A stretch of DNA of 64,000 bases from Deltaproteobacteria bacterium RBG_16_49_23 (GCA_001798855.1 MGQQ01000132.1:4421-68420); one strand, 5' to 3'; counted from the stretch's first letter, positions 11,217 to 64,000 are shown. The notes: generated from the letters alone by a model not told the origin. A program made the numbers and translations.

Positions 11217-12154
11217 TCGTCCCTCCGATAAAGAGCCAGGGTATTAAGACAAAACTTGTACCCTGGATCCATGCTTTAGTGCCTGCAGTACGTGGGCGAT
11301 GGATAGAACCATTCTTGGGCACCGGAGTTGTTGCATTTAATTCTGGGTTCCGTAAAGCACTTCTAAGCGATATCAACCCGCATGTTATAAGATTCTATCA
11401 AAAGGTCAAGGAACGCGAGATTACCCCGTCCTCGGTTCGGAGATTTTTAGAAACCGAAGGACAGCAATTGAGAGAAGCGTCGGAAGATGGCTACGCTTAC
11501 TTTAGACTTGTCAAAAATCGATTTAATACTTCGCAGAATCCTTTGGACTTCCTCTTTCTCTCACGGACTGGGTTCAATGGTATGATGCGTTTCAATCGAA
11601 ATGGTGAATGGAACATTCCCTTCTGTCAAAAGCCTGACCGATTCAATCGTTCCTACATTACCAAAATTGTCAATCAGGTTCACGATGTTGCTTGCCTAAT
11701 TCAACCAGAATGGGAATTCATCGTGGCACCTTTTGAGAAGGTGATTCCTTTGGCCACCAAGGACGACATCATCTACTGCGATCCGCCGTATCTGGGTAGG
11801 TATGTTGATTATTTTAGTGGATGGACTGATGAAGATGAAAAGAGATTGTTTGACCTCCTCTGCAAGACGCCAGCGCGTTTCATACTCTCCACCTGGCACC
11901 ACAATGATTTTCGCGAGAATCTAATGATTCATAAACTGTGGAACAAGTTCAATATTGTTACGCGTGATCATTTCTATCACTCGGGCGGTAAGATTGAAAA
12001 CCGCAGAGCTATTGTAGAGGCTCTCATCTTCAACTTTTCCGCAAACATCCGAATACACAATTACGGCGTTGAGCCGAAGCCCGAACAGCTGGTTCTATTC
12101 GAAGAAAGGGTGGAATACATCACCCAACAATTGAGTCGAGCTGACATTGTATAG
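11207..12154 (+). CDS. Dam-family (D12 class) N6-adenine DNA methyltransferase
   Basis: It has the FxGxG SAM motif (PFLGTGVV) and the DPPY catalytic motif (IIYCDPPYLG). It overlaps the restriction endonuclease gene by 10 nt, the classic R-M coupling arrangement. Confidence 0.85.
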   Translation: MRVIVPPIKSQGIKTKLVPWIHALVPAVRGRWIEPFLGTGVVAFNSGFRKALLSDINPHVIRFYQKVKEREITPSSVRRFLETEGQQLREASEDGYAYFRLVKNRFNTSQNPLDFLFLSRTGFNGMMRFNRNGEWNIPFCQKPDRFNRSYITKIVNQVHDVACLIQPEWEFIVAPFEKVIPLATKDDIIYCDPPYLGRYVDYFSGWTDEDEKRLFDLLCKTPARFILSTWHHNDFRENLMIHKLWNKFNIVTRDHFYHSGGKIENRRAIVEALIFNFSANIRIHNYGVEPKPEQLVLFEERVEYITQQLSRADIV

Positions 12155-12220
12155 TGTTGCGTGCATCACCATGCCCCTCATTCATGACGTTGATCGCACA
12201 CCAGGGATCGGGGTGGCTCT

Positions 12221-51541: not shown

Positions 51542-51806
51542 CTCGGTTTCCCACCTCCCTCATCAATTTAAATTCTTCAATATCATAGAGAACTTAGAAT
51601 ATCAATCTATTTTTTTGCCAATGTCTATCAAAATAGATTGTCATTTGCATTTTTTCCTTGACAAATAATTTAATTGTGTTATGTTTCACAAGACTTTGCT
51701 GCCATCTAACTATTTCATTTCCATTAAATTTTCAAGCGGGTTGTGGGGGGGGGTGAATAAGATTCCCGTTTCAAAAATTTTAAGAAAGGAAGGTGAATAA
51801 TTGGCT

Positions 51807-54800
51807 ATGAAGATTACGCGAAGAAGTTTTTTAAAGATTTCTGGCGCCACGGCCGCAGGGACCGTGATGGGCGGCCTGGGATTCGATCTTTCGCCGGTAG
51901 AATCCTATGCCCAGGAACTCCGGATTAAAGGGGCAAAGGAAACCACCACGGTCTGCTGTTACTGTTCGGTCGGCTGTGGAATCATTGTCCATACCGATGC
52001 CAAAGGAAAAGTGATTAACACCGAGGGCGATCCTGATCATCCGGCCAGTGAAGGCGGCCTCTGTGCAAAAGGAATGGCGCTCTATCAACTTGTAACCAAC
52101 AAAGATAGGTTAACAAAGGTCCTGTACAGGGCTCCCAATAGCGCAAAATGGGAAGCCAAATCCTGGGATTGGACCCTTACGGAAATTGCAAAGAGGATTA
52201 AGAAAAGCCGTGATGCCAGTTTCGTTCAGAAAAATGATAAAGACCAGGTCGTCAACCGGACCAATGGTATCGCCGGCGTCGGCTGCGCCCATGTCAATAA
52301 CGAGGAAGGCTGGCTCTACCAGAAATTCCTCCGGGCTTTGGGGTTAGTCTATATAGAATTTGAAGCCCGCCTCTGACACAGCTCCACTGTAGCGGCTCTG
52401 GGAGAGTCGTTCGGACGCGGAGCAATGACCAATAGCTGGACGGATATTGGGGTGAGCGATTGTATCCTCATTATGGGAAGCAATACGGCTGAAAACCATC
52501 CCGTTGCGATGAAATGGGTCTTAAGAGCACAGGAGAAAGGCGGAAAGATCATCAGCGTTGATCCGAGATTCACCCGTACCTCCGCCAAGGCAGATATCTA
52601 TGTGCCGATGCGGTCAGGAGGGGATATCGCTTTCCTGGGTGGGATGATCAAATATCTGCTTGATAAAGACCTTATCTTCAAAGATTATGTCGTGAACTAT
52701 ACCAATGCTCCGTTTATCGTGAGCGAAAAATATGGGTTCAAAGATGGCCTCTTCTCCGGCTACAACCCCGAAAAACGAGCCTATGATAAAGCGACCTGGG
52801 TTTTTGAAAGAGATGAAAAGGGAATCCCGAAAAAGGATATGACCCTGCAACATCCAGGATGCGTTTACCAACTGCTGAAGAAACATTATGCTCGATATGA
52901 CTTAGATACGGTTTCCAGCATCACCGGTACACCCAGGGCTGATCTGATGAAAGTCTATGAGACCTTTGGCGCTACTGGAAAACCGGATAGAGCAGGAACA
53001 ATGCTTTACGCCATGGGATGGACCCAGCATACCACAGGAACCCAGATCATCCGTGCGGGCTCGATGATCCAGTTGCTCTTGGGAAATATCGGAATGGCCG
53101 GAGGCGGAGTGAATGCATTGAGAGGTGAGTCCAACGTACAGGGAATAACTGACCATGCCTTACTCTTCCACATTCTGCCCGGTTATCTGCCCAATGTAAA
53201 TGCTGCGCTTGAAAATCTTGAAAAATATAACGCCACCACTCCAAAAACATCTGATTCGATGAGCGTCAACTGGTGGGGTAACAGACCCAAATATATCGCC
53301 AGTCTCCTCAAATCCTTCTATGGCGAAAACGCCGCCAAGGAGAATGATTTGGGATTTGGATGGCTCCCGAAGTTGGATGTGGGTCAGAATGCCTCCTGGC
53401 TCTTCATGTTCGATGAGATGTTTAATGGTAAATTTTCAGGGTTCCTCTGCATGGGAATGAATCCGGCTTGCTCGAGCCCAAATTCCAATAAGACCCGACA
53501 GGCATTGGCCAAGCTGGATTGGATGGTTGATATTGACCTTTTTGAGAACGAGACCAGTAGTTTCTGGAAGGGTCCCGGAATGGATCCCAAAAAGGTCAAG
53601 ACCGAAGTCTTCCTCCTTCCGGCAGCTTCTTCCGTTGAAAAGGAAGGAAGTGTCTCGGATAGTGCCAGAACAGGACAGTGGCGTAATAAAGCATCCGATC
53701 CTCCCGGTGATTCACAGGCAGATGGACAGATCGTCCACGACCTCTATATGAAAATAAAGGACCTCTACGCCAAAGAAGGAGGAGCCTTCCCCGATCCGAT
53801 CCTGAAATTAAAATGGGATTATGCAAAGGATGGAAAGGTTGATTGGCACGCTGTGGCAAAAGAGATCAACGGCTGCTTCACCGAAGATATTGCCGAACAT
53901 CCGGTAGATAAGAAGGCTTATAAGAAAGGAACACAGGTCCCCAATTTTGTCTTCCTTCTGGCTGACGGCCGTACCTCCTGCGGGAACTGGCTCTATTCTG
54001 GAAGCTACACTGAAGCAGGAAATATGATGGCCCGCCGGGATAAAACCCCTATCCCCACTGCCAACATTTTTCCCAGATGGGGCTGGGCATGGCCACTCAA
54101 TCGTCGGATCATTTACAACCGCGCCTCAGTTGACCTCAATGGAAAACCATGGGATCCAAAACGGGCAGTCATCCAATGGGATGGCTCCAAGTGGGTAGGC
54201 GATGTGCCGGATAATGCAGTCCCACCTATGGGCCTTCCGAACGGCAGATATCCCTTTATCATGAAGCCTGATGGAGTGGCCTCATTCTTTGGACCGGGAC
54301 TGGCGGATGGTCCCTTCCCGGAACATTATGAACCCCTGGAATGTCCTATTGAGAAGAATCCTCTCTCTTCGCAGAGGATCAATCCAGCCACGCCTATCTT
54401 CAAGGGCGAACTCGATAAGTTTACAACCTGCGATCCTAAATTTCCCTTTATTGCCACCACCTACCGTCTGACCGAGCACTGGCAGACAGGGCTCATGACC
54501 CGATATCAGCCATGGCTGGTGGAGGCAGAACCTCAGATGTTTGTTGAGTTAAGTATGGAATTGGCCAAACTGAGAGGGATCAAGAATGGAGATCGTGTCA
54601 CCCTCAGTTCCCCACGAGGAAAGATGTGGGCCAAGGCCATGGTGACCAACCGTATTAAACCCTTTCATGTTGCTGGTCAGACGGTCCATCTTGTTGGAAT
54701 GACATGGCACTACGGATGGATGGTCCCCAAGGATGGTGGGGATAGCGCCAACATCCTCACCCCGTCCATTGGAGACGCCAACACATTGATCCCGGAATAT

Positions 54801-54956
54801 AAGGTCTTCCAGGTTAATGTGACCAAAGAAGAGAAGCCCAAAGTGGAAAAGAAGCCTGAGCCAAAAGCCGAAGCCAAGCCAGCGCCAAAAGCTGAAGCGA
54901 AGCCTGAACCAAAACCCGAGGTGAAACCAGCCCCAAAAGCTGAGACAAAAAAGTAA
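51807..54956 (+). CDS. fdhA: formate dehydrogenase catalytic subunit, selenocysteine-containing (TGA at 52374-52376 read as Sec)
   Basis: A Tat signal (RRSFLK) and the 4Fe-4S motif CCYCSVGC. The sequence EARL-TGA-HSSTVAALGESFGRGAMTN matches the canonical FdnG/FdhF Sec context. ORFs 51801-52376 and 52425-54956 are in the same frame. Confidence 0.9.
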
Positions 54957-56897: not shown

Positions 56898-57350
56898 ATG
56901 ATTTCAAGGAAACGTCTTTCCCCTTTCTTCAGGATCGTTTTTCTTTTATCCATCCTTCTATTCCTCGCCGCCTGTGAGCATTCCCCTGAGATCGGTCCAG
57001 GACCTTTGGCAGGATTTTCTGAAAAGGCGACCGCCCTGGTCACCACCACCGTCAGGGGTCAACTTAGAGACAATCCCCCAAAACAGACACTCCTTGCCGC
57101 ACAACTTCCATCTTTCGAAAAAACGGCCACCATGAATCAACTAATGGATGAACTTAAAGGGATAGATCCCCTGAAGAATCTTGCCTACCTCATTGAAACG
57201 GATATCATGTTTGAACTTCAGAAACCGGAACATCACTACGAAAGAAGTCATTTCAACTCATCGGAAATCCAGCGCGAGGTGGTCCTTGCAATCATCACCG
57301 GGATGAAGAGGGCGCTTGCCCAGCTCAAAGGAGGGAAAGGTGGCGCATAA
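56898..57350 (+). CDS. hypothetical lipoprotein
   Basis: A signal peptide with a lipobox (LFLAACE). Confidence 0.5.
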   Translation: MISRKRLSPFFRIVFLLSILLFLAACEHSPEIGPGPLAGFSEKATALVTTTVRGQLRDNPPKQTLLAAQLPSFEKTATMNQLMDELKGIDPLKNLAYLIETDIMFELQKPEHHYERSHFNSSEIQREVVLAIITGMKRALAQLKGGKGGA

Positions 57351-58320
57351 AAGGGCCCTGGTCTTAAGTGGCGGAGGGGCGAAAGGCGCCTTCACGGCAG
57401 GCGTGGTCAAATATCTGGCGGTTGAACGCGGACACCACTTCGATCTCGTCGTGGGAACCAGCACCGGCGCTCTGATCGCTCCCCTTGTGGCAACTCAGGA
57501 CATTGCCAACCTGATCCACTTTTACGAGAACGTGGAAGACCGGGATATCCTTACCGACCGCCCCGATCTCCTGGCCTTTCTCTTCTCCGACGCCCTCAAC
57601 GATACCAAACCCCTTGAGAGGCTGATCCATAAATTCTTTGGCGACAGAAGACGTTATGAGAGGCTCCTCCGGTCCTCCACAGAGATATTCGTCACTGTCG
57701 TCAATATGCAGACCGGAGAGATTGAATACGGAAACCAGCGCCAGGATCCAAAACCAACACTCCTCAAAAAGATCCTTGCCTCCGCATGCGTTCCTGTCAT
57801 GATGCCTCCCGTCAAAATCGGAAAATATCAGTATGTCGATGGAGGGGTGAAGGAGATTGCGCCCTTCGGGAAGGCGATGGATGAAGGGGCAACCCACATT
57901 GTCTCCGTTATCCTCTCCCCTGATCCACGGCATCGGGAGCCGGTCCGAAAAGAATTCACCGGATCCATGGAGATATTGAAGCGGACCCTCGCACTCCTGA
58001 CCGATGAGATAGTGGACAACGATCTGAAGACCGCAACGGTTTACAGCGAAGCCATTCGCTATCTCGATCAGATCAAGACTAATGCGAAAGAAAAACTCGA
58101 CCTACCCGATTCACAAATACGGAAGCTTTTTACAGGATTCGAAAATCCATTCCAGGGGAAAAGGGTCGTTGGAATCACAACCATCAGACCTGATGAAGAA
58201 TTGATGGAGTCCTCCCTGAACTTCGACCCTGACAAGATGCGGGAGATGGTTGACAAGGGATATCAAAAAGCAAAAGAAGTGGTCAGCCAGGAAATCACCC
58301 AGGGCACCGGCTTCTTCTAA
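57340..58320 (+). CDS. patatin-like phospholipase
   Basis: GGGAKG oxyanion motif, GTSTG serine motif, and D-G-G. The probable start is the GTG after GGAGG. Confidence 0.8.
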   Translation: MAHKRALVLSGGGAKGAFTAGVVKYLAVERGHHFDLVVGTSTGALIAPLVATQDIANLIHFYENVEDRDILTDRPDLLAFLFSDALNDTKPLERLIHKFFGDRRRYERLLRSSTEIFVTVVNMQTGEIEYGNQRQDPKPTLLKKILASACVPVMMPPVKIGKYQYVDGGVKEIAPFGKAMDEGATHIVSVILSPDPRHREPVRKEFTGSMEILKRTLALLTDEIVDNDLKTATVYSEAIRYLDQIKTNAKEKLDLPDSQIRKLFTGFENPFQGKRVVGITTIRPDEELMESSLNFDPDKMREMVDKGYQKAKEVVSQEITQGTGFF

Positions 58321-58372
58321 CCTGTGGGTCCGGAAACTGTTTCAATAACTCTCCATTAGCTACCTTTAACGT

Positions 58373-58765
58373 TCATACTGGTATCTCGAGCAAAATCTTA
58401 TCGTAATTCACTAACGGAGTGTTCTTTTCCCTGCCAACTTTCTTCTTCTTAATCTCCAACATGCCCGCCTGCGCGAGGAACTGAACATCATTAAAGGTAT
58501 TCTTAATATCCCGTTTCAGTTTTTTTGCCAACTCGTAGACGGAAGCGGGACGTTCCTTCCTGACGGTTCTGAGAACCCTCAACCGTTCCTCGGTCAGCAC
58601 TTTTCTCATGGAGTCGATACTATCGAAAGAGACGCCCTCATGCTTTTTGATCTTCTCACCGCTCTCGATCTTTTTGACGACTTCTTTAATTTCTTTGAGA
58701 ATCTCCTCATCGGATTTGATTGCAATTTTAATTTTTTTCACTTTCATCGTTTGCCTTCCCTCCAT
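58373..58765 (-). CDS. HVO_A0114-family winged-helix DNA-binding protein (putative antitoxin, TumA-like)
   Basis: ...RPASVYELAKKLKRDIKNTFNDVQFLAQAGMLEI... It overlaps the upstream small gene by 22 nt. Confidence 0.5.
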   Translation of the reverse strand: MEGRQTMKVKKIKIAIKSDEEILKEIKEVVKKIESGEKIKKHEGVSFDSIDSMRKVLTEERLRVLRTVRKERPASVYELAKKLKRDIKNTFNDVQFLAQAGMLEIKKKKVGREKNTPLVNYDKILLEIPV

Positions 58766-59046
58766 TTCATGACATCGCTCGCAAAGTCTTGCCAGAGCTT
58801 TTCGAGGCTTTGAAATTCATAAGGATACTCTTTGTCGCCGTAGTGCCTATGATCGCCCCTGCCCTCGGCGTTGTCATAGCCGATCACTCGCTGATCATTG
58901 ACGATGTACACGAAAGAATATTTGAATTCATGCGGCTTATCCGGGCTCTGTGGCACCCTCCATATTTTAAATTCGCGAAACGAACCATCCTCGAAATACT
59001 TCTTCTCATGATAAAGTAGTCCAGCCTTCCCAGCGCGATCCTTCAT
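58744..59046 (-). CDS. DUF6516/TumE-like small protein (putative toxin partner)
   Basis: A 100-aa protein, ...FKIWRVPQSPDKPHEFKYSFVYI..., forming a two-gene operon with the HTH protein. Confidence 0.4.
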   Translation of the reverse strand: MKDRAGKAGLLYHEKKYFEDGSFREFKIWRVPQSPDKPHEFKYSFVYIVNDQRVIGYDNAEGRGDHRHYGDKEYPYEFQSLEKLWQDFASDVMKWREGKR

Positions 59047-59452
59047 ATAGGTAATATAATACCAAACATTATAATTTATGTCAATAATTCCTATTTATGC
59101 GGAAAGAAGAAAAGAGTGGCGCCCCGCCATGCGCAGGATTGTCTTCCTCAGGAAGTCAGTACAACTCGCTCTAAGCGGACGGAGATCGCCGGAGAATACC
59201 CTCCCCGGCGGCAGGCAGGTGCAGAAGACCAAGCATCATTGTTTTAAATAAAAGTGGGTTTAAAAACCCGCCTCCCTCCTTCACACAATTATTTTCTGAA
59301 TGGATGATTATGTCAGAAAGAGAGAAAAAGGTTGAGGAGGCAGGTCTTGCAATACAGCTATTTAACTATCTTGACGCCTCTATCATTTTTTTGATAATGT
59401 TCTACCATCGCAAGGAGACCAAGTCTGGATGCCCCGGGGAGAATTTACCATA

Positions 59453-59635
59453 TTATTGGTTGGAGGAAGGTTTTTCAGGCAGGAAATTGGCGAAGTCTCT
59501 CGCCCAGTTCACATAAAATGGCGAACGATCCGGCCGTACCCTGTTCTCTTCGGCGCACGCACGGTATGCTTCCCAAAAACTATCGTACCCTTTAGAGGAA
59601 TTACGGAGATTCATGATTTTCACCATAGAAACCAT
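59453..59635 (-). pseudogene. intI: N-terminal remnant (60 aa) of a tyrosine recombinase, integron-integrase (IntI)-like
   Basis: ...RSPFYVNWARDFANFLPEKPSS matches the IntI N-terminal motif (IntI1 [22 protein letters not shown]; VchIntIA EAYLHWITRYIHFHNKKHPS). The ORF terminates after 60 codons, and no recombinase-like frame continues downstream. Confidence 0.4.
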
Positions 59636-59649
59636 TTTGATTTTAACAG

Positions 59650-59660
59650 GTTAGGCTAAC
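59650..59660 (+). other. attI-like core GTTAGGC(TAAC) immediately upstream of the intI remnant and before the first cassette gene
   Basis: It matches the GTTRRRY recombination core and is followed by an AT-rich inverted repeat TAATGATAG...TTATCATA. Confidence 0.35.
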
Positions 59661-59751
59661 ATCAGGCATGTAATGATAGACAGAATTATCATATCATAAT
59701 ATAATTTTTCCGTCTACTATCTGTTGGGCCTCATAATATGAAGGGAAAAAT

Positions 59752-60600
59752 ATGCATCCTCAAACATATCTAAAGACATTTTGGCGTTTGGAGTTGCGTT
59801 CCCAAGTATTTGTTGCAATGAGTTTTGCTCCACAATATGAGAGTAGATTTAAAAACGTAATTACGCCAGCAATCCAATCCTTAATTGTTGATGGTAGACG
59901 CCTAGAACCATATCGAGTAGACATATCTAAGTCTGGTGACTCCATACTCACCGATATCAGTGACGGAATTGCACACTGTCGCTTGGTATTAGCAGACGTT
60001 TCCTCAGTCGGGAGAGATGCAGTAACAGGGCAGCCATACCGAAATGCCAATGTAATGTATGAAGTTGGGATCGCGCTGGCATGCAGACACCCGAGCGAAA
60101 TTCTATTGTTAAGAGACGATCACGACAAGTTCCTTTTTGATGTAAGCACTGTCCCTCATATAACGCTTGATTTCACTAACACTGCTTCAGCAATTCAGGG
60201 TTTAGCAGAACATTTATTGGCTCGTATACGTGAACAGCGATTTATTAACGATGCTAGGATCCAGATAGCTATTTCTTCATTAAGTGCAGAAGAAATATTA
60301 TTGCTAAAGCAAATGCGAGAGTATACCATCACGACTGTTTGGGGCAGAGAGGTCAAAGGTTTGGCAAATTGGTATGCGTTGGCTACGTCGCGGCTGCTCG
60401 ATAAGGGCGTTATCAAATTGGCCGGAGAGTTTGAAGAGAATAAGCCTGCTTATACCTTCACACCCTTTGGTTATGTGGTTCATCAAGCCATCAATTCGAG
60501 CCTTCGTAAGTTTGAGGCTCAGAAACCTGAGACGCAGGCGCAGGCTTCACCGGAAGAGATCGAGAAGGCCCAACAAGAAAATCCAGCGGACGCGGAATAA
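59752..60600 (+). CDS. cassette 1: protein with an N-terminal nucleoside 2-deoxyribosyltransferase/SLOG/TIR-like (flavodoxin-fold) domain plus an unknown C-terminal domain
   Basis: VFVAMSFAP...CRLVLADVS...NANVMYEVGIALACRHP follows the NDT-like D/NxG(T)xxExGxAxAxGKP pattern. Confidence 0.5.
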   Translation: MHPQTYLKTFWRLELRSQVFVAMSFAPQYESRFKNVITPAIQSLIVDGRRLEPYRVDISKSGDSILTDISDGIAHCRLVLADVSSVGRDAVTGQPYRNANVMYEVGIALACRHPSEILLLRDDHDKFLFDVSTVPHITLDFTNTASAIQGLAEHLLARIREQRFINDARIQIAISSLSAEEILLLKQMREYTITTVWGREVKGLANWYALATSRLLDKGVIKLAGEFEENKPAYTFTPFGYVVHQAINSSLRKFEAQKPETQAQASPEEIEKAQQENPADAE

Positions 60601-60656
60601 CCGTGGCGTGGTTTTGGATTGGTGGTTGCCCGCGCCGCTGATTTAGATCGTTAGGA
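60568..60656 (+). other. attC-like site 1 (R'' GCCCAAC ... R' GTTAGGA)
   Basis: The stem AAATCCAGCGGACGCGG pairs with CCGCGCCGCTGATTT with two extrahelical bases. It overlaps the stop codon of cassette 1. Confidence 0.45.
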
Positions 60657-60667
60657 GTTAATCTGTA

Positions 60668-61465
60668 ATGAGCAAAATCGATGCAAACGGTTTCCTTGAA
60701 GGCAGCATCTGTAACTGGATTGCAGATCACAGGGACCGGCACGCTACGGTGTTTACAGCTATCCGGGAACTAAACCGGGAATGCCATCGATTTCTAGACG
60801 GCCGGGCAGTTGACGTCACGAGCGAATTGCACATAACTACAGCAGTGCTGTTTGCTCGACTGATGGAACTTTTCCAAGGAATGTTCATCGCCGTTGAGCA
60901 CGGCATGACGTCAGTCAGTAATGTAGTGTTCCGAGCTTATCTCGAAGCGTACTTCTGCCTTATGGCCATTCACAGGGACCCCACGTTCCTCAGGCAATAC
61001 TTGGACCAGCTTCACGTCGCTCGAAAAAGGTTGGTTAATCGTATACGTAACTCAAGCAGTCCAAGTATCGCTGCACTTCAAGAAGCGCTGGATGAGAATC
61101 TCGCTCGGGATATCAGTCAAACTATAAAAGAGCAGGATATCAAGCCTCTGAAGATCGAGGACGTTGCACGCAGGGCTGGTCTTCACGATGTCTACGCGAC
61201 AGCATACACGGTCTTGAGTGGTGCAGTCCACACGGCAGCATGGGATCTTGAATCCCACCTCGACTACGATGACACAAAAAAAGCAATCCAAGGGTTCCAG
61301 TATGGCCCTTCAGACTCCAATACTGAGAAATTACTCGGGCTTGCTGGCATGGTTATGGCTGACGCACTCGAAACAATCTCGTCTATCTTTAACGAGGATC
61401 GGGCTCAATTATGTGCGGGGTTCACGAGTCAATTTCAGGCTGCTCTGGGGGAGAGGCCGGCCTAG
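60668..61465 (+). CDS. cassette 2: all-alpha hypothetical protein (265 aa)
   Basis: About 52% GC; no firm domain recognised. Confidence 0.45.
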   Translation: MSKIDANGFLEGSICNWIADHRDRHATVFTAIRELNRECHRFLDGRAVDVTSELHITTAVLFARLMELFQGMFIAVEHGMTSVSNVVFRAYLEAYFCLMAIHRDPTFLRQYLDQLHVARKRLVNRIRNSSSPSIAALQEALDENLARDISQTIKEQDIKPLKIEDVARRAGLHDVYATAYTVLSGAVHTAAWDLESHLDYDDTKKAIQGFQYGPSDSNTEKLLGLAGMVMADALETISSIFNEDRAQLCAGFTSQFQAALGERPA

Positions 61466-61517
61466 AAAAGGTGATCCAGCTCGCATTGGAGTAGGAATTT
61501 CTCTCCTATCCATCGCT

Positions 61518-61599
61518 CCTAACTACGGCATGCATGCGACTGCGTACAGCATCCGCTGCGCTCCCGCTTCCCGCCGCGCCTGATGCTCGGCGTTAGGCC
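61518..61599 (+). other. attC-like site 2 (R'' TCCTAAC ... R' GTTAGGC)
   Basis: 82 bp with an imperfect internal palindrome (GGCATGCATGCG / GCATCAGGCGCG). Confidence 0.45.
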
Positions 61600-61631
61600 A
61601 TATTGTAGGTACGAAAGGAGCTAAATAATCT

Positions 61632-62339
61632 ATGGTTCTACTTCGTCTCATATTTGCAATTCTTTTTGCTCCGATTAGATGGTTAACGAATCCAATAACA
61701 CGGCCTAAGAATAGTCTTCTGGAATGGCATCTTTCCTATGCACCTTTCTTTGTGAAAATTCAGACCAATCATAAGGAGAAGTTTTTGAATGATGATCTGC
61801 TGATAGCGAGCTACATTATGTTTTTGGCTCGTTATCTTTATATCTGCGATGATCGACAAGTGCATATTGCTCGATGTTTTATGCTTGACTCTGTAAGAAG
61901 GTCACAAAAACCAAATGAAATAGCAGCTAAACTTTATGAAGCAGTTTTTAAGACATTAAACCCTGTGGAACAAGATGCGACAATTAAATTATTCAAGATT
62001 TATTCTCGATTTACGAGCCTTCCCCCCCTCACATATTCCGAGGATAAAGAACCAAGTCATTCATATGCAAAATATTCATTTTATGTCATTAAAAGTGGCA
62101 GGGGTCTAACTTCTATTTTTCATATGTCGGCAGGACCGGACAAAATTCTTCTTCCTCTTACGGTCGGGATTCTATATGAGTATGTAGTAGATAAAGTTCG
62201 GAACAGGGAGAAGAAAGAAAAGTTAGATCGATCAATGATTGATTTGATGGAAGGTTACAATTCTGTTGATTGCCGTTCACGGGAAGGATTTAGCATGTTG
62301 CCAGCTGAAATTGTTAAGAAACATAATCTTGAAATATGA
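61632..62339 (+). CDS. cassette 3: hypothetical protein (235 aa), AT-rich (about 38% GC), hydrophobic N-terminus
   Basis: ORF only. Confidence 0.4.
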   Translation: MVLLRLIFAILFAPIRWLTNPITRPKNSLLEWHLSYAPFFVKIQTNHKEKFLNDDLLIASYIMFLARYLYICDDRQVHIARCFMLDSVRRSQKPNEIAAKLYEAVFKTLNPVEQDATIKLFKIYSRFTSLPPLTYSEDKEPSHSYAKYSFYVIKSGRGLTSIFHMSAGPDKILLPLTVGILYEYVVDKVRNREKKEKLDRSMIDLMEGYNSVDCRSREGFSMLPAEIVKKHNLEI

Positions 62340-62460
62340 CTTGGAAGATATGGGGCCAAACCTAAATTACACATTTTACAGGGCTGGTTAAGGGTAATGT
62401 GGTTTGTAGACCGCACTGGGGTCAAACCTGATTATTGAGTTTAAAAGGAAGATGTGCAGC

Positions 62461-62550
62461 GCCTAACAAACCAATCAACCCGACTGGGAATAGTCCTTGT
62501 CGGTTTTATGGCGAGGTGGTTGCCCCAGCGGGGTATTTTTGTCGTTAGAC
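62461..62550 (+). other. attC-like site 3 (R'' GCCTAAC ... R' GTTAGAC)
   Basis: Consensus R boxes with an imperfect stem CCCGACTGGG / CCCCAGCGGGG. A second GTTAGATTAAC lies just downstream. Confidence 0.5.
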
Positions 62551-62638
62551 GAAAGGATAAAGTTATCAGGAAGGCGGTTAGATTAACATCGGCAAAGGCG
62601 AAAGGGAGAAGACTAAGCGGAGCGGTGAGAGGATCGGC

Positions 62639-63070
62639 ATGACCTTCCGGATTTCTCCACAGGAAGCGGTGTCAGCAATGTTCCGAAAGGACTGGTGGTT
62701 GGTGGTGAAAATCCCGGTCTCCGCGTATCTCGCTTGGTCATTCTTCCTGCCTCAGTTATGGAAGGTCGGCGTGCTTTTGATTACGTCGATCGTCTCCACC
62801 TTCCTGGTGGGTTCTCCAGTAGGAAGCGGCGTGTCCAATTTCCACCTGTATTTCATGTTTGGGGCAATGGTTGCCATGATCTATGGCGTCTTCTGGTATA
62901 CGGTCTACGTCTTCGCCTATCTGGGTCGCCCCGGTATGTTGACCCGCATTGTCGGAGTCGCTGGTGTCCTCATCCATCCCATCCTTCTCATTGGAGTTGC
63001 ATTGTTAATCGGCGGCTTAGGAACACTTTGGGGGGGTACCACAGGAACAGTTCTGGGCCTATATAGATAA
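62639..63070 (+). CDS. cassette 4: small membrane protein with four predicted TM helices (143 aa)
   Basis: Hydrophobic segments; about 53% GC. Confidence 0.45.
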   Translation: MTFRISPQEAVSAMFRKDWWLVVKIPVSAYLAWSFFLPQLWKVGVLLITSIVSTFLVGSPVGSGVSNFHLYFMFGAMVAMIYGVFWYTVYVFAYLGRPGMLTRIVGVAGVLIHPILLIGVALLIGGLGTLWGGTTGTVLGLYR

Positions 63071-63305
63071 ATGGACGCCGATAGAGTCCTGGCGAGTGAT
63101 ACAACCATAATGGGGATGAGCGAACGGGGACGGTAATTAACCGTCCCTCCCCACACCACCCATCATGCGGGTCCGCAATGGGCGGTTCGCAGAAATCATC
63201 GGACCTTAGCCGGATATTGAATCTGAATCCACAGTGTGCGAATAGAGACAAGCCCCTGCTGTTAAAGCGAATGGTTGTATAATTTGGAGGGAGGAGGTGT
63301 TTGTT

Positions 63306-63977
63306 ATGCGAAGCAGGTTACTATTAGTTCTTTCTTATTTTGTCTTACAGGGGTGCGCTTCCAATCCGATCCCAATGGTATCTCAAGTCCCAGTACCAGA
63401 TGTAATTGCTTTGCGCCCAGATGTCCAATCGAGGCCGTTGATTCTCGATCGAGTGGTTTTCGATGTCCCTAAAGGTAAGGTTTTAGGAGAAAAAAGGCAA
63501 GGTAATTTATGCGTCAATCCGGCTCCCCTAATTTGGGAAGAGGAAATCCTAGAATTCAACCGCGGGGCCTATCATAGAGAATTTGAGAAAATTGCGAAGC
63601 AGTACAACTTTCGACTGGCGGAAAAACCAACTTCTCTTTTTGGGTCAGCCATATCAACAGGCAACGAGCTTCTTATCGCAGCAAGAATAGTGGTCACAAA
63701 TCAAAATGCCTGTTTTGCAAGTACCTTCAACGTGCACATCCCCGTTCGGAAAGGCAACGTAAGATTCTTAGTTCACTGGGAAATCTTTTCCGTTGCGGAA
63801 AAGAAAGTCGTCTTTGCCCTTGAAAACGAGAGTTCTGGCGTTCTTGAAAACTTCAAACCCTTTAGTGAGGATAGCTATTATACGCAAGCATTTGGGAATT
63901 CAGTACGAGGCCTGTTGAATGATCAAGATTTCCGGACCTTAGTGATTTTTACTCCCATAGGGAAAGATGCGACTTAG
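63306..63977 (+). CDS. cassette 5: hypothetical lipoprotein (about 224 aa)
   Basis: Signal peptide and lipobox (LQGCAS). Confidence 0.45.
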   Translation: MRSRLLLVLSYFVLQGCASNPIPMVSQVPVPDVIALRPDVQSRPLILDRVVFDVPKGKVLGEKRQGNLCVNPAPLIWEEEILEFNRGAYHREFEKIAKQYNFRLAEKPTSLFGSAISTGNELLIAARIVVTNQNACFASTFNVHIPVRKGNVRFLVHWEIFSVAEKKVVFALENESSGVLENFKPFSEDSYYTQAFGNSVRGLLNDQDFRTLVIFTPIGKDAT

Positions 63978-64000
63978 CCAATTACGGGTTATATAGTTGC

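Follow-up and report, generated by a model that had tools for sequence, protein, structure and literature searches.

Integrons are best known from clinical gammaproteobacteria. The subject here is a probable integron with a truncated integrase gene, located at positions 59453-64000 of a 64,000-nucleotide stretch of DNA from Deltaproteobacteria bacterium RBG_16_49_23 (GCA_001798855.1 MGQQ01000132.1:4421-68420), the whole of this stretch being referred to below as the window. Several described systems come close to it. Sedentary chromosomal integrons are exemplified by the Vibrio cholerae superintegron with its VCR sites and by the Xanthomonas integrons with an inactivated intI. For class 1 integrons, selection against the active integrase is the accepted explanation for the loss of integrase function. 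The canonical attC site is built as R''-L''...L'-R' with extrahelical bases and measures 57-141 nt. Clusters of attC sites lacking an integron integrase are termed CALINs (IntegronFinder; Cury et al. 2016, PMC4889954). A recognisable pseudo-intI, found through the C-terminal IntI domain, was reported near 15 of 279 CALINs, and integrase loss from a complete integron was proposed as a scenario for their origin (PMC4889954).

In IntegronFinder terms, the locus counts as a CALIN with an intI pseudogene beside it, which is a known kind of element. As in CALINs with a pseudo-intI, two or more attC sites share one orientation, the vicinity lacks a functional intI, and the cassettes have no known function. 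Unlike the pseudo-intI CALINs of PMC4889954, it keeps only the N-terminal ~52 codons of intI, so that a search with the C-terminal domain would miss the stub, and its array is still attached to attI and to a Pc-like promoter. With sedentary chromosomal integrons, it shares a chromosomal location, mostly unknown cassettes, attC types common to different loci (attC1 and a long element) and a toxin-antitoxin pair nearby, whereas it differs from them by its short array (3-4 cassettes visible), its mutually dissimilar attC sites, the location of the toxin-antitoxin pair on the integrase side rather than in a cassette, and a Syntrophaceae-like host rather than a gammaproteobacterium. With class 1 integrons that have an inactivated or truncated intI1, it has in common that the integrase function is lost and that both the cassettes and the attI/promoter end persist. 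It differs from them in the clade of its integrase (449 amino acids, N-terminal SAM-like domain duplicated), in a deletion allele that recurs widely across environmental metagenomes, and in that no transposon backbone was identified. Three of its attC sites follow the canonical pattern: they measure 82-90 nt, have boxes of the RYYYAAC/GTTRRRY type and an unpaired spacer, and carry on one and the same arm a bulged T and, six pairs from it, a bulged G (C in attC2). A fourth element (184 nt, 10-bp closing stem, branched interior) departs from this pattern and is not recognised by the covariance model described below. The locus is very probably a chromosomal integron of a Syntrophaceae-like anaerobe, in which intI has been internally deleted and attI, a promoter, three cassettes and a fourth unit are left, possibly served by an integrase acting in trans.

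Anatomy of the integrase-deleted integron

The features at the integrase end and the three canonical recombination sites are the following.

59358-59452, no strand assigned: intI 3' flank fused to codon ~53; normally follows the stop of an intact intI; includes the promoter-like TTGACG-16-GATAAT
59453-59635, minus: delta-intI, a 60-codon open reading frame (ORF); codons 1 to ~56 homologous to IntI, last 4 codons and stop from the deletion junction
59636-59723, plus: attI region, 29.5 % guanine-cytosine (GC) content; conserved in relatives up to the G of GTTGGGC (59723-59729)
59650-59656, plus: GTTAGGC box inside attI; its GGTTAG part is kept in all relatives
59677-59705, plus: Pc-like promoter TAGACA-17-TATAAT, 18 nt upstream of the crossover and directed into the cassettes
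60568-60656, minus: attC1, 89 nt; R'' GCCCAAC, R' GTTAGGA; extrahelical T and G; 48.7 bits, E 3.7e-10
61517-61598, minus: attC2, 82 nt; R'' TCCTAAC, R' GTTAGGC; extrahelical T, second bulged base C; 36.3 bits, E 5.8e-7
62461-62550, minus: attC3, 90 nt; R'' GCCTAAC, R' GTTAGAC; extrahelical T and G; 38.9 bits, E 1.2e-7

The product of the 60-codon ORF contains FYVNWARDFANF and ends in ...FYVNWARDFANFLPEKPSSNQ. Its homology to IntI runs from 59635 down to 59467 and corresponds to the N terminus of 449-amino-acid integron integrases. Pfam and NCBIfam returned nothing significant for this stub, the identity of which came from an exhaustive search together with full-length relatives. The exhaustive phmmer search with the 60-residue sequence gave 152 matches, a few of them spurious (TPR repeat proteins) and the others true relatives, and tblastn matches to the stub region were obtained in P0075, P0054 and P0001. 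The longer relatives run on into IntI sequence, from RHYSYRTE..YL.WVRRFI.FH through the IntI-specific insertion ARKYPN....W.WQYVFP and HTLRHSFATHLL to the MIYTH tyrosine. Two of them, L015:10279-11352 and P0075, pass the NCBIfam model TIGR02249 'integron integrase' with 447 and 271 bits, respectively (cutoff 265), and an uninterrupted intI ORF of 448-456 codons is found in 10 related loci. The stub is homologous to IntI because its full-length relatives pass TIGR02249. In these relatives, the region homologous to the stub is an additional SAM-like domain at the N terminus, which is a weak duplicate of the SAM-like N-domain of IntI, as indicated by PF13495 and by TIGR02249 positions 21-79 (E 4e-5). 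The integrase clade in which this N-terminal domain is duplicated represents a modest novelty, of the family rather than of the window locus.

When the full-length relatives were compared with the 64-kb window by tblastn, residues 1-56 alone were matched, and no other IntI-like frame was found in 1-64000. Translation of the minus strand in three frames from 59640 down to 58990 gives no recombinase continuation, and neither the catalytic residues nor the IntI-specific insertion that mark the integrase of a complete integron occur within the 64-kb window. The deletion itself is directly visible in the alignment with the intact intI of L015. Indeed, blastn shows 83 % identity over 262 nt from 59728 to 59467, and 59360-59441 then matches L015 11384-11463 at 82 % identity, just past the L015 intI stop at 11352. 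As homology stops at 59467 and resumes with the post-stop flank, the intI body has therefore been removed from codon ~53 to just beyond the stop. The junction, which consists of ...CCTGAAAAACCTTT, a 6-nt filler CCCCGA and ACAATGATATGG..., is common to at least 17 other loci, and it is more diverged in the window than elsewhere, with a 1-nt deletion and a changed tail SSNQ. Among L014-L100, dozens of independent internal deletions of intI are seen; these leave 50-95 codons at the start of the gene and, at the other end, either ~30-170 codons or the 3' flank. Microhomology was considered as the deletion mechanism and set aside: intact genes carry CTGAAAAA / CTGAAGAA and AAAGA repeats at both breakpoints, yet neither predicts CCCCGA.

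The attI boundary was located by aligning the intI-proximal region of eight loci (window, L002, L014-L017, L019, L020). Homology is conserved through ...TTATCATATCATAATATAATTTTTCCGTCTACTATCTG followed by TT and is unrelated from the next base, which places the crossover between G 59723 and T 59724, 28 nt ahead of the ORF1 start. The seven integron-bearing rows other than L019 keep ...TATCTG/TT (the slash marking the crossover), and the degenerate remnant L002 and L019 have diverged there. The GTTAGGC box lies further inside attI, and we infer it to be possibly an integrase-binding repeat. The promoter-like TAGACA-17-TATAAT is the best sigma-70-type match (11/12) in 58300-64000, and its motif is conserved in the attI of relatives; it is a plausible Pc. 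A second promoter-like sequence, TTGACG-16-GATAAT (59371-59398, plus strand), belongs to the conserved intI 3' flank and was moved by the deletion to ~330 nt from attI. It could drive an antisense transcript or belong to a mobile promoter module. In intact loci, this sequence points antisense into intI. A second copy in L015 (12570-12616; first copy L015 11384-11463) precedes a small toxin-antitoxin-like operon.

The attC sites were identified with a covariance model (R1) built on 10 attC sites from L015, L016 and L020 only, with the window excluded, the sites having been picked by a heuristic scanner in related loci. In the training alignment, 85.9 % of cells are paired and 11 of the 18 pairs have changed on both sides; none of 500 shuffles was as good, and no slid register came close. 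R1 was run with filters off over the whole 64-kb window. The three sites listed above gave full-length alignments, with the bulged T in all three and a bulged G six pairs away in attC1 and attC3. They are spaced ~950 nt apart, and all lie on the minus strand, their bottom strand being placed as cassettes on the plus strand require. Thus, R1 finds three attC sites of the same orientation where a CALIN is defined by at least two within 4 kb. The next-best match in the window scored 21.9 bits and all others 11 bits or less; true sites outside the training set scored 25-67 bits. Across 80 metagenome loci of the same integrase clade, 138 of 138 R1 matches are on the strand that a cassette array running divergently from intI calls for. 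The 21.9-bit match (12122-12195, minus strand, E 0.003) has six non-standard pairs, lies between two plus-strand ORFs far from the integron and is probably due to chance.

The first site, attC1, overlaps the last 33 nt of ORF1 and has a DNA fold z-score of -2.55. Copies of it with 74-84 % identity are found in five other arrays of the same integrase clade (L028, L054, L059, L061, L085), and by sequence it is one of an attC type common to several arrays, a situation known from sedentary chromosomal integrons. Rfam returned nothing in the region at either gathering or E-value thresholds, attC not being an Rfam family. A home-made scan based on R boxes and folding energy ranked the three sites 1st, 4th and 12th of 78, a poor discrimination, and was replaced by the covariance model.

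A preliminary description of this DNA, made from the sequence alone, had anticipated much of this anatomy. The 60-codon minus-strand ORF at 59453-59635, the lack of any recombinase frame downstream, the three attC-type palindromes of 82-90 bp (R1 scores of 48.7, 36.3 and 38.9 bits, against 21.9 at best elsewhere in the window) and an integrase-less, CALIN-like array with three co-oriented attC sites and only a stub in 64 kb are all borne out. Other statements hold in part. The motif taken as the N terminus of IntI is real integrase sequence, but it comes from the extra duplicated SAM-like domain and not from the canonical IntI N-domain; the GTTAGGC given as the attI core is present within attI, but the crossover lies 73 nt to its right; and of the extrahelical G and T that were to be checked, T occurs in every site, and G in attC1 and attC3 but not in attC2, which has C. 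The statement that there were no convincing promoters does not stand, since the 11/12 match at 59677-59705 faces the cassettes.

Cassettes and their possible turnover

Cassette boundaries were taken from the G/TT sites of attI and of attC1-3. Downstream of attI, the array and its right-hand neighbour comprise the following units.

59724-60650, plus: cassette 1, 927 bp; ORF1 59752-60600, 282 amino acids, 44.3 % GC
60651-61592, plus: cassette 2, 942 bp; ORF2 60668-61465, 265 amino acids, 50.6 % GC; DUF5677 (Pfam PF18928, E 2e-26)
61593-62544, plus: cassette 3, 952 bp, 38.9 % GC; ORF3 61632-62339, 235 amino acids, 36.7 % GC; no family
62545-63274, plus: unit 4, a probable cassette; ORF4 62639-63070, 143 amino acids, hydrophobic, 52.3 % GC
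63097-63280, minus: long attC-like element, 184 nt; R'' ATACAAC, R' GTTGTAT
63275-63987, plus: ORF5 module; lipoprotein-like ORF 63297/63306-63977, 226 amino acids, 43.9 % GC

Each of cassettes 1-3 carries one plus-strand ORF, as expected of a cassette array. Compared with the rest of the window (58 kb, 49.1 +/- 4.0 % GC), cassette 3 is the sole clear outlier in base composition. The protein of cassette 1 has 821 homologs with 55-96 % identity in Deltaproteobacteria, Anaerolineae, Nitrospira, Planctomycetes, Actinobacteria and others, and no family could be assigned to it or to its homologs with Pfam, NCBIfam or PADLOC. In its AlphaFold model (pLDDT 79.8), the N-terminal domain resembles TIR and nucleoside 2-deoxyribosyltransferase folds according to Foldseek, with matches to TIR-STING 7un8 (E 1e-4), 2a0k, BcmB 4jen (TM 0.70) and the TIR domains of SARM1 and SPARTA. 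A nucleotide- or NAD-processing, possibly defensive, function is a lead offered by this predicted fold rather than an assignment. PADLOC gave no defence annotation for any of the five ORFs, and sequence searches of solved structures gave no match for cassettes 1 and 3. The DUF5677 family of cassette 2 is also represented in another integrase-deleted array (L016 7200-8009, 269 amino acids) by a cassette too divergent for tblastn.

The content of the array is not shared with related genomes. The patatin gene flanking the locus (57316-58320) identifies 13 related loci in metagenome-assembled genomes (MAGs), with 71-90 % identity and the labels Syntrophaceae, Deltaproteobacteria and Thermodesulfobacteriota. 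In eight of these 13 siblings, patatin is directly followed by a conserved gene set with no integron there. No match to 59724-63272 was found in the 13 loci by blastn, tblastx or tblastn, the cassette genes being absent from them, and R1 gave no match at E <= 0.01 in the same loci. In the sibling L002, what is left of intI/attI at this chromosomal position is shorter, and there is no attC. Likewise, cassettes 1-3 and the coding sequence of ORF4 have no match in ~100 related integron loci. As judged from these sequence comparisons, cassette content varies between related genomes.

With its intI deleted, the locus would be incapable of recombination by itself. Its cassettes would be transcribed from the attI promoter, perhaps joined by read-through from the promoter-like site that now lies, owing to the deletion, less than 330 nt from attI. 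Its attI and attC would still be substrates, allowing cassette gain, loss and shuffling if an integrase were supplied in trans, whether encoded by a second integron of the cell or brought in by an arriving element. Active integrases are documented to carry a fitness cost (Starikova et al. 2012, PMC3510236), with which the loss of intI would be in keeping.

Signs of such turnover are found in two pairs of related loci. The platforms of L080 and L081 are 99.7 % identical and their downstream flanks 100 % identical over 589 nt, whereas 2.5 kb on the cassette side are unrelated. Between L036 and L042, a common distal stretch of 872 nt (93.8 %) is displaced by ~840 nt, and the attI-proximal cassettes differ. 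Both patterns fit insertion at attI after the deletion, which needs an integrase in trans. Near-identical integrase-less platforms with different attI-proximal cassettes suggest, at the level of sequence, that an integrase is supplied in this way. Somewhat tentatively, the window may hold one copy of a widespread, long-lived and non-autonomous integron platform that still captures cassettes via trans-acting integrases. This platform would be defined by a single intI deletion, which at least 17 environmental loci share across several integrase lineages, and would retain attI, Pc and the flank promoter.

A completely frozen relic, with an array that has been inert and decaying since the loss of intI and with variable arrays elsewhere that are chimeras or older than the deletion, appears unlikely, though it deserves serious weight. 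It would account for the neutrality of the stub (see below), for the 1-nt deletion and SSNQ tail that make the window junction more diverged, and for the further reduced remnant in L002, and no close platform relative of the window was found with which turnover could be tested at this very locus. However, preservation is good in attI, in the Pc-like promoter and in all three attC sites, the latter aligning to the model over their full length and retaining their extrahelical bases, and the L080/L081 and L036/L042 pairs show the pattern of insertion at attI.

Several points nevertheless weigh against a chromosomal integron whose array may still be served in trans. No integrase is visible in the window, and the trans-acting source is assumed. 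The turnover after deletion is known from metagenome contigs, in which the conserved 330-nt platform could cause chimeric joins. The attI promoter is identified by its match to the consensus only. R1 was trained on heuristically selected sites of related loci and is not the attC model of IntegronFinder. The fourth site was missed by the covariance model and exceeds the usual attC length. Finally, the right end of the array is not certain, as the window ends at 64000.

The right-hand end of the array

Unit 4 extends from the G/TT of attC3 on its left to the GTTGTAT that belongs to the long element on its right. ORF4 has no homolog in any fetched locus. The long element has a perfect 10-bp closing stem (ATACAACCAT/ATGGTTGTAT) around two internal hairpins, fully complementary R-box-like heptamers at 63097-63103 and 63274-63280, and a DNA fold of -36.8 kcal/mol (z-score -4.65). 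Its core (63127-63260) is 88-95 % identical by blastn to elements within or at the distal end of five arrays (L015, L020, L034, L042, L097). The two hairpins are kept in the divergent L097 copy through changes on both sides, and the homology to the other arrays ends near GTT. Neither R1 (E <= 10, filters off) nor Rfam detected the element. We read it, from sequence and predicted folding, as a long atypical attC type shared between cassettes; it behaves like a site that bounds an array, its membership of the attC family being unproven. Two other identities were discarded. One hairpin is similar to domain V of a group IIC-attC intron (10 bp, 2-nt bulge, 4 bp, tetraloop), but it has no catalytic triad, and the Rfam intron models gave no match to the element even at E <= 1. 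A fixed array terminator was rejected because a further attC lies beyond the element in L042.

Beyond it lies the ORF5 module. The stretch 63273-63990 is 94.6 % identical to L101 (9899-10618) and L102 (3126-3845) and 86.6 % identical to L103 (415-1113). These ORF5 homologs, with 82-95 % nucleotide identity, lie outside integrons, in neighbourhoods of ordinary genes (CCA-adding enzyme, isochorismatase and others) and without an integrase. The homology has sharp limits, GGTTGTAT on the left and ...CGGGTT on the right, and each falls on G/TT. R1 found no attC beyond ORF5 in the window (63800-64000); run with filters off, it also gave none at E <= 1 in L101 or L102. ORF5 adjoins the array and most likely lies outside it, as far as sequence comparison can tell.

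All five ORFs could alternatively be cassettes, the attC of ORF5 lying beyond the window or being too degenerate to be detected. The G/TT at both homology ends of the ORF5 module, the left one coinciding with R' of the long element, would agree with this, as would the ability of integrases to insert cassettes at genomic GWT sites (bioRxiv 10.1101/2022.09.11.507474). This arrangement is nonetheless improbable, as the right-hand GTT lies only 8 nt past the ORF5 stop, R1 detects no attC in 63800-64000 or in L101/L102, and the homologs sit among housekeeping-type genes with no integrase or attC nearby.

The preliminary description had counted five cassettes. Its five plus-strand ORFs are real (282, 265, 235, 143 and 226 amino acids), and so is their mixed composition (36.7-52.3 % GC, with cassette 3 as the only clear outlier), but five is an overcount, since there are three canonical attC sites, an atypical fourth unit, and an ORF5 without attC and with homologs outside integrons. 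An anaerobic host was correctly foreseen, the siblings being Syntrophaceae/Thermodesulfobacteriota MAGs, and the cargo is still uncharacterised, with a DUF5677 family and a fold-level likeness to TIR and nucleoside 2-deoxyribosyltransferases in place of assigned functions. The variation of cassette content that it had proposed to look for among siblings is also found, no cassette gene being present in the 13 loci and eight having no integron there. The word 'decayed' fits the deleted intI and the neutral stub but may overstate inactivity, as sister platforms without intI appear to turn over cassettes still. The combination that it had named as speaking against an integron (no attC model matches, no similarity to IntI and conserved synteny) is not what was observed.

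Fate of the integrase stub and its surroundings

Loci with the CCCCGA junction (at least 17) are polyphyletic relative to the intact alleles. In a neighbour-joining tree of attI and the N terminus (276 columns), deletion alleles are interspersed with intact alleles with bootstrap values of 81-83 %. Spread by homologous recombination is one possibility for the occurrence of one junction in several lineages. The ratio of non-synonymous to synonymous changes (dN/dS) is ~0.06-0.10 overall among deletion alleles. Within well-supported deletion-only clades, 21 non-synonymous and 7 synonymous changes were counted, which gives a pN/pS of 0.84 and fits neutrality (p 0.42), compared with 0.32 for pairs of intact alleles and 0.23 where deletion alleles from different clades are compared. 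With a pN/pS in deletion-only clades that is indistinguishable from neutral, and no sign of purifying selection in these sequence comparisons, the stub is a pseudogene.

The 60-codon ORF could otherwise be retained as a mini-protein, half of a SAM-like DNA-binding domain acting at attI or regulating the array. This would account for the more than 130 short homologs with 70-90 % identity (135 word-indexed homologs, all of 52-104 amino acids, several on contigs of 66-351 kb) and, at first sight, for the low overall dN/dS. It is nevertheless very unlikely. Indeed, the low dN/dS stems from comparisons between clades, each of which has intact sister alleles, whereas the ratio within deletion-only clades is neutral, and it is on this pN/pS that a functional mini-protein was rejected. 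Moreover, the stop position drifts in L067 and L096, the tail differs in the window, and the fragment covers just half of the domain.

That there is no integron at all, with palindromes due to chance or to repetitive extragenic palindromic (REP)-like repeats and a spurious ORF similarity, has a negligible probability: the failure of Pfam and NCBIfam to recognise the ORF, the TPR repeat proteins among the exhaustive-search matches and the poor separation of the three sites from background by the plain energy scan would favour it, but it is refuted by the R1 result and the attI boundary alignment, as well as by the TIGR02249 scores and the sibling and 80-locus controls.

On the integrase side, the locus is bordered by a toxin-antitoxin pair.

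58373-59046, minus: TumE / HVO_A0114 toxin-antitoxin pair (PF20126, E 3.5e-17; PF25212, E 1.1e-22), a neighbour on the integrase side and not a cassette

This pair has a strong promoter-like site at 59084-59056 (TTGACA-17-TATTAT with TG) and lies directly beyond the intI 3' flank. Other toxin-antitoxin pairs occupy the equivalent position in related loci, namely MazE/PIN in L014 and a CopG-like pair in L015. Further away in the window, a formate-dehydrogenase-type molybdopterin subunit (51801-54956, plus strand) is split by an in-frame TGA (52374-52376) between ...EARL and HSSTVAALGESFGRGAMTN. This TGA is at the usual selenocysteine position of FdhA, and it is therefore one selenoprotein gene and not two ORFs; FdhE and an Fe-S subunit follow.

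The window locus itself is ordinary for the field, and the shared deletion allele with apparent continued turnover is a modest novelty of the family. The locus nonetheless displays a complete anatomy in a Syntrophaceae-like anaerobe: the attI crossover can be placed, a Pc-like promoter is present, the attC sites have their extrahelical bases, and the integrase deletion is precise. If the platform does still capture cassettes via integrases in trans, integrons without an integrase would not be dead relics but parasites, or 'satellite' acceptors, within anaerobic sediment communities, and the sharing of one junction by polyphyletic backgrounds would imply a spread of the deletion itself through recombination. 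The loss of a costly integrase need then not stop cassette capture, which would bear on the origin and persistence of CALINs.

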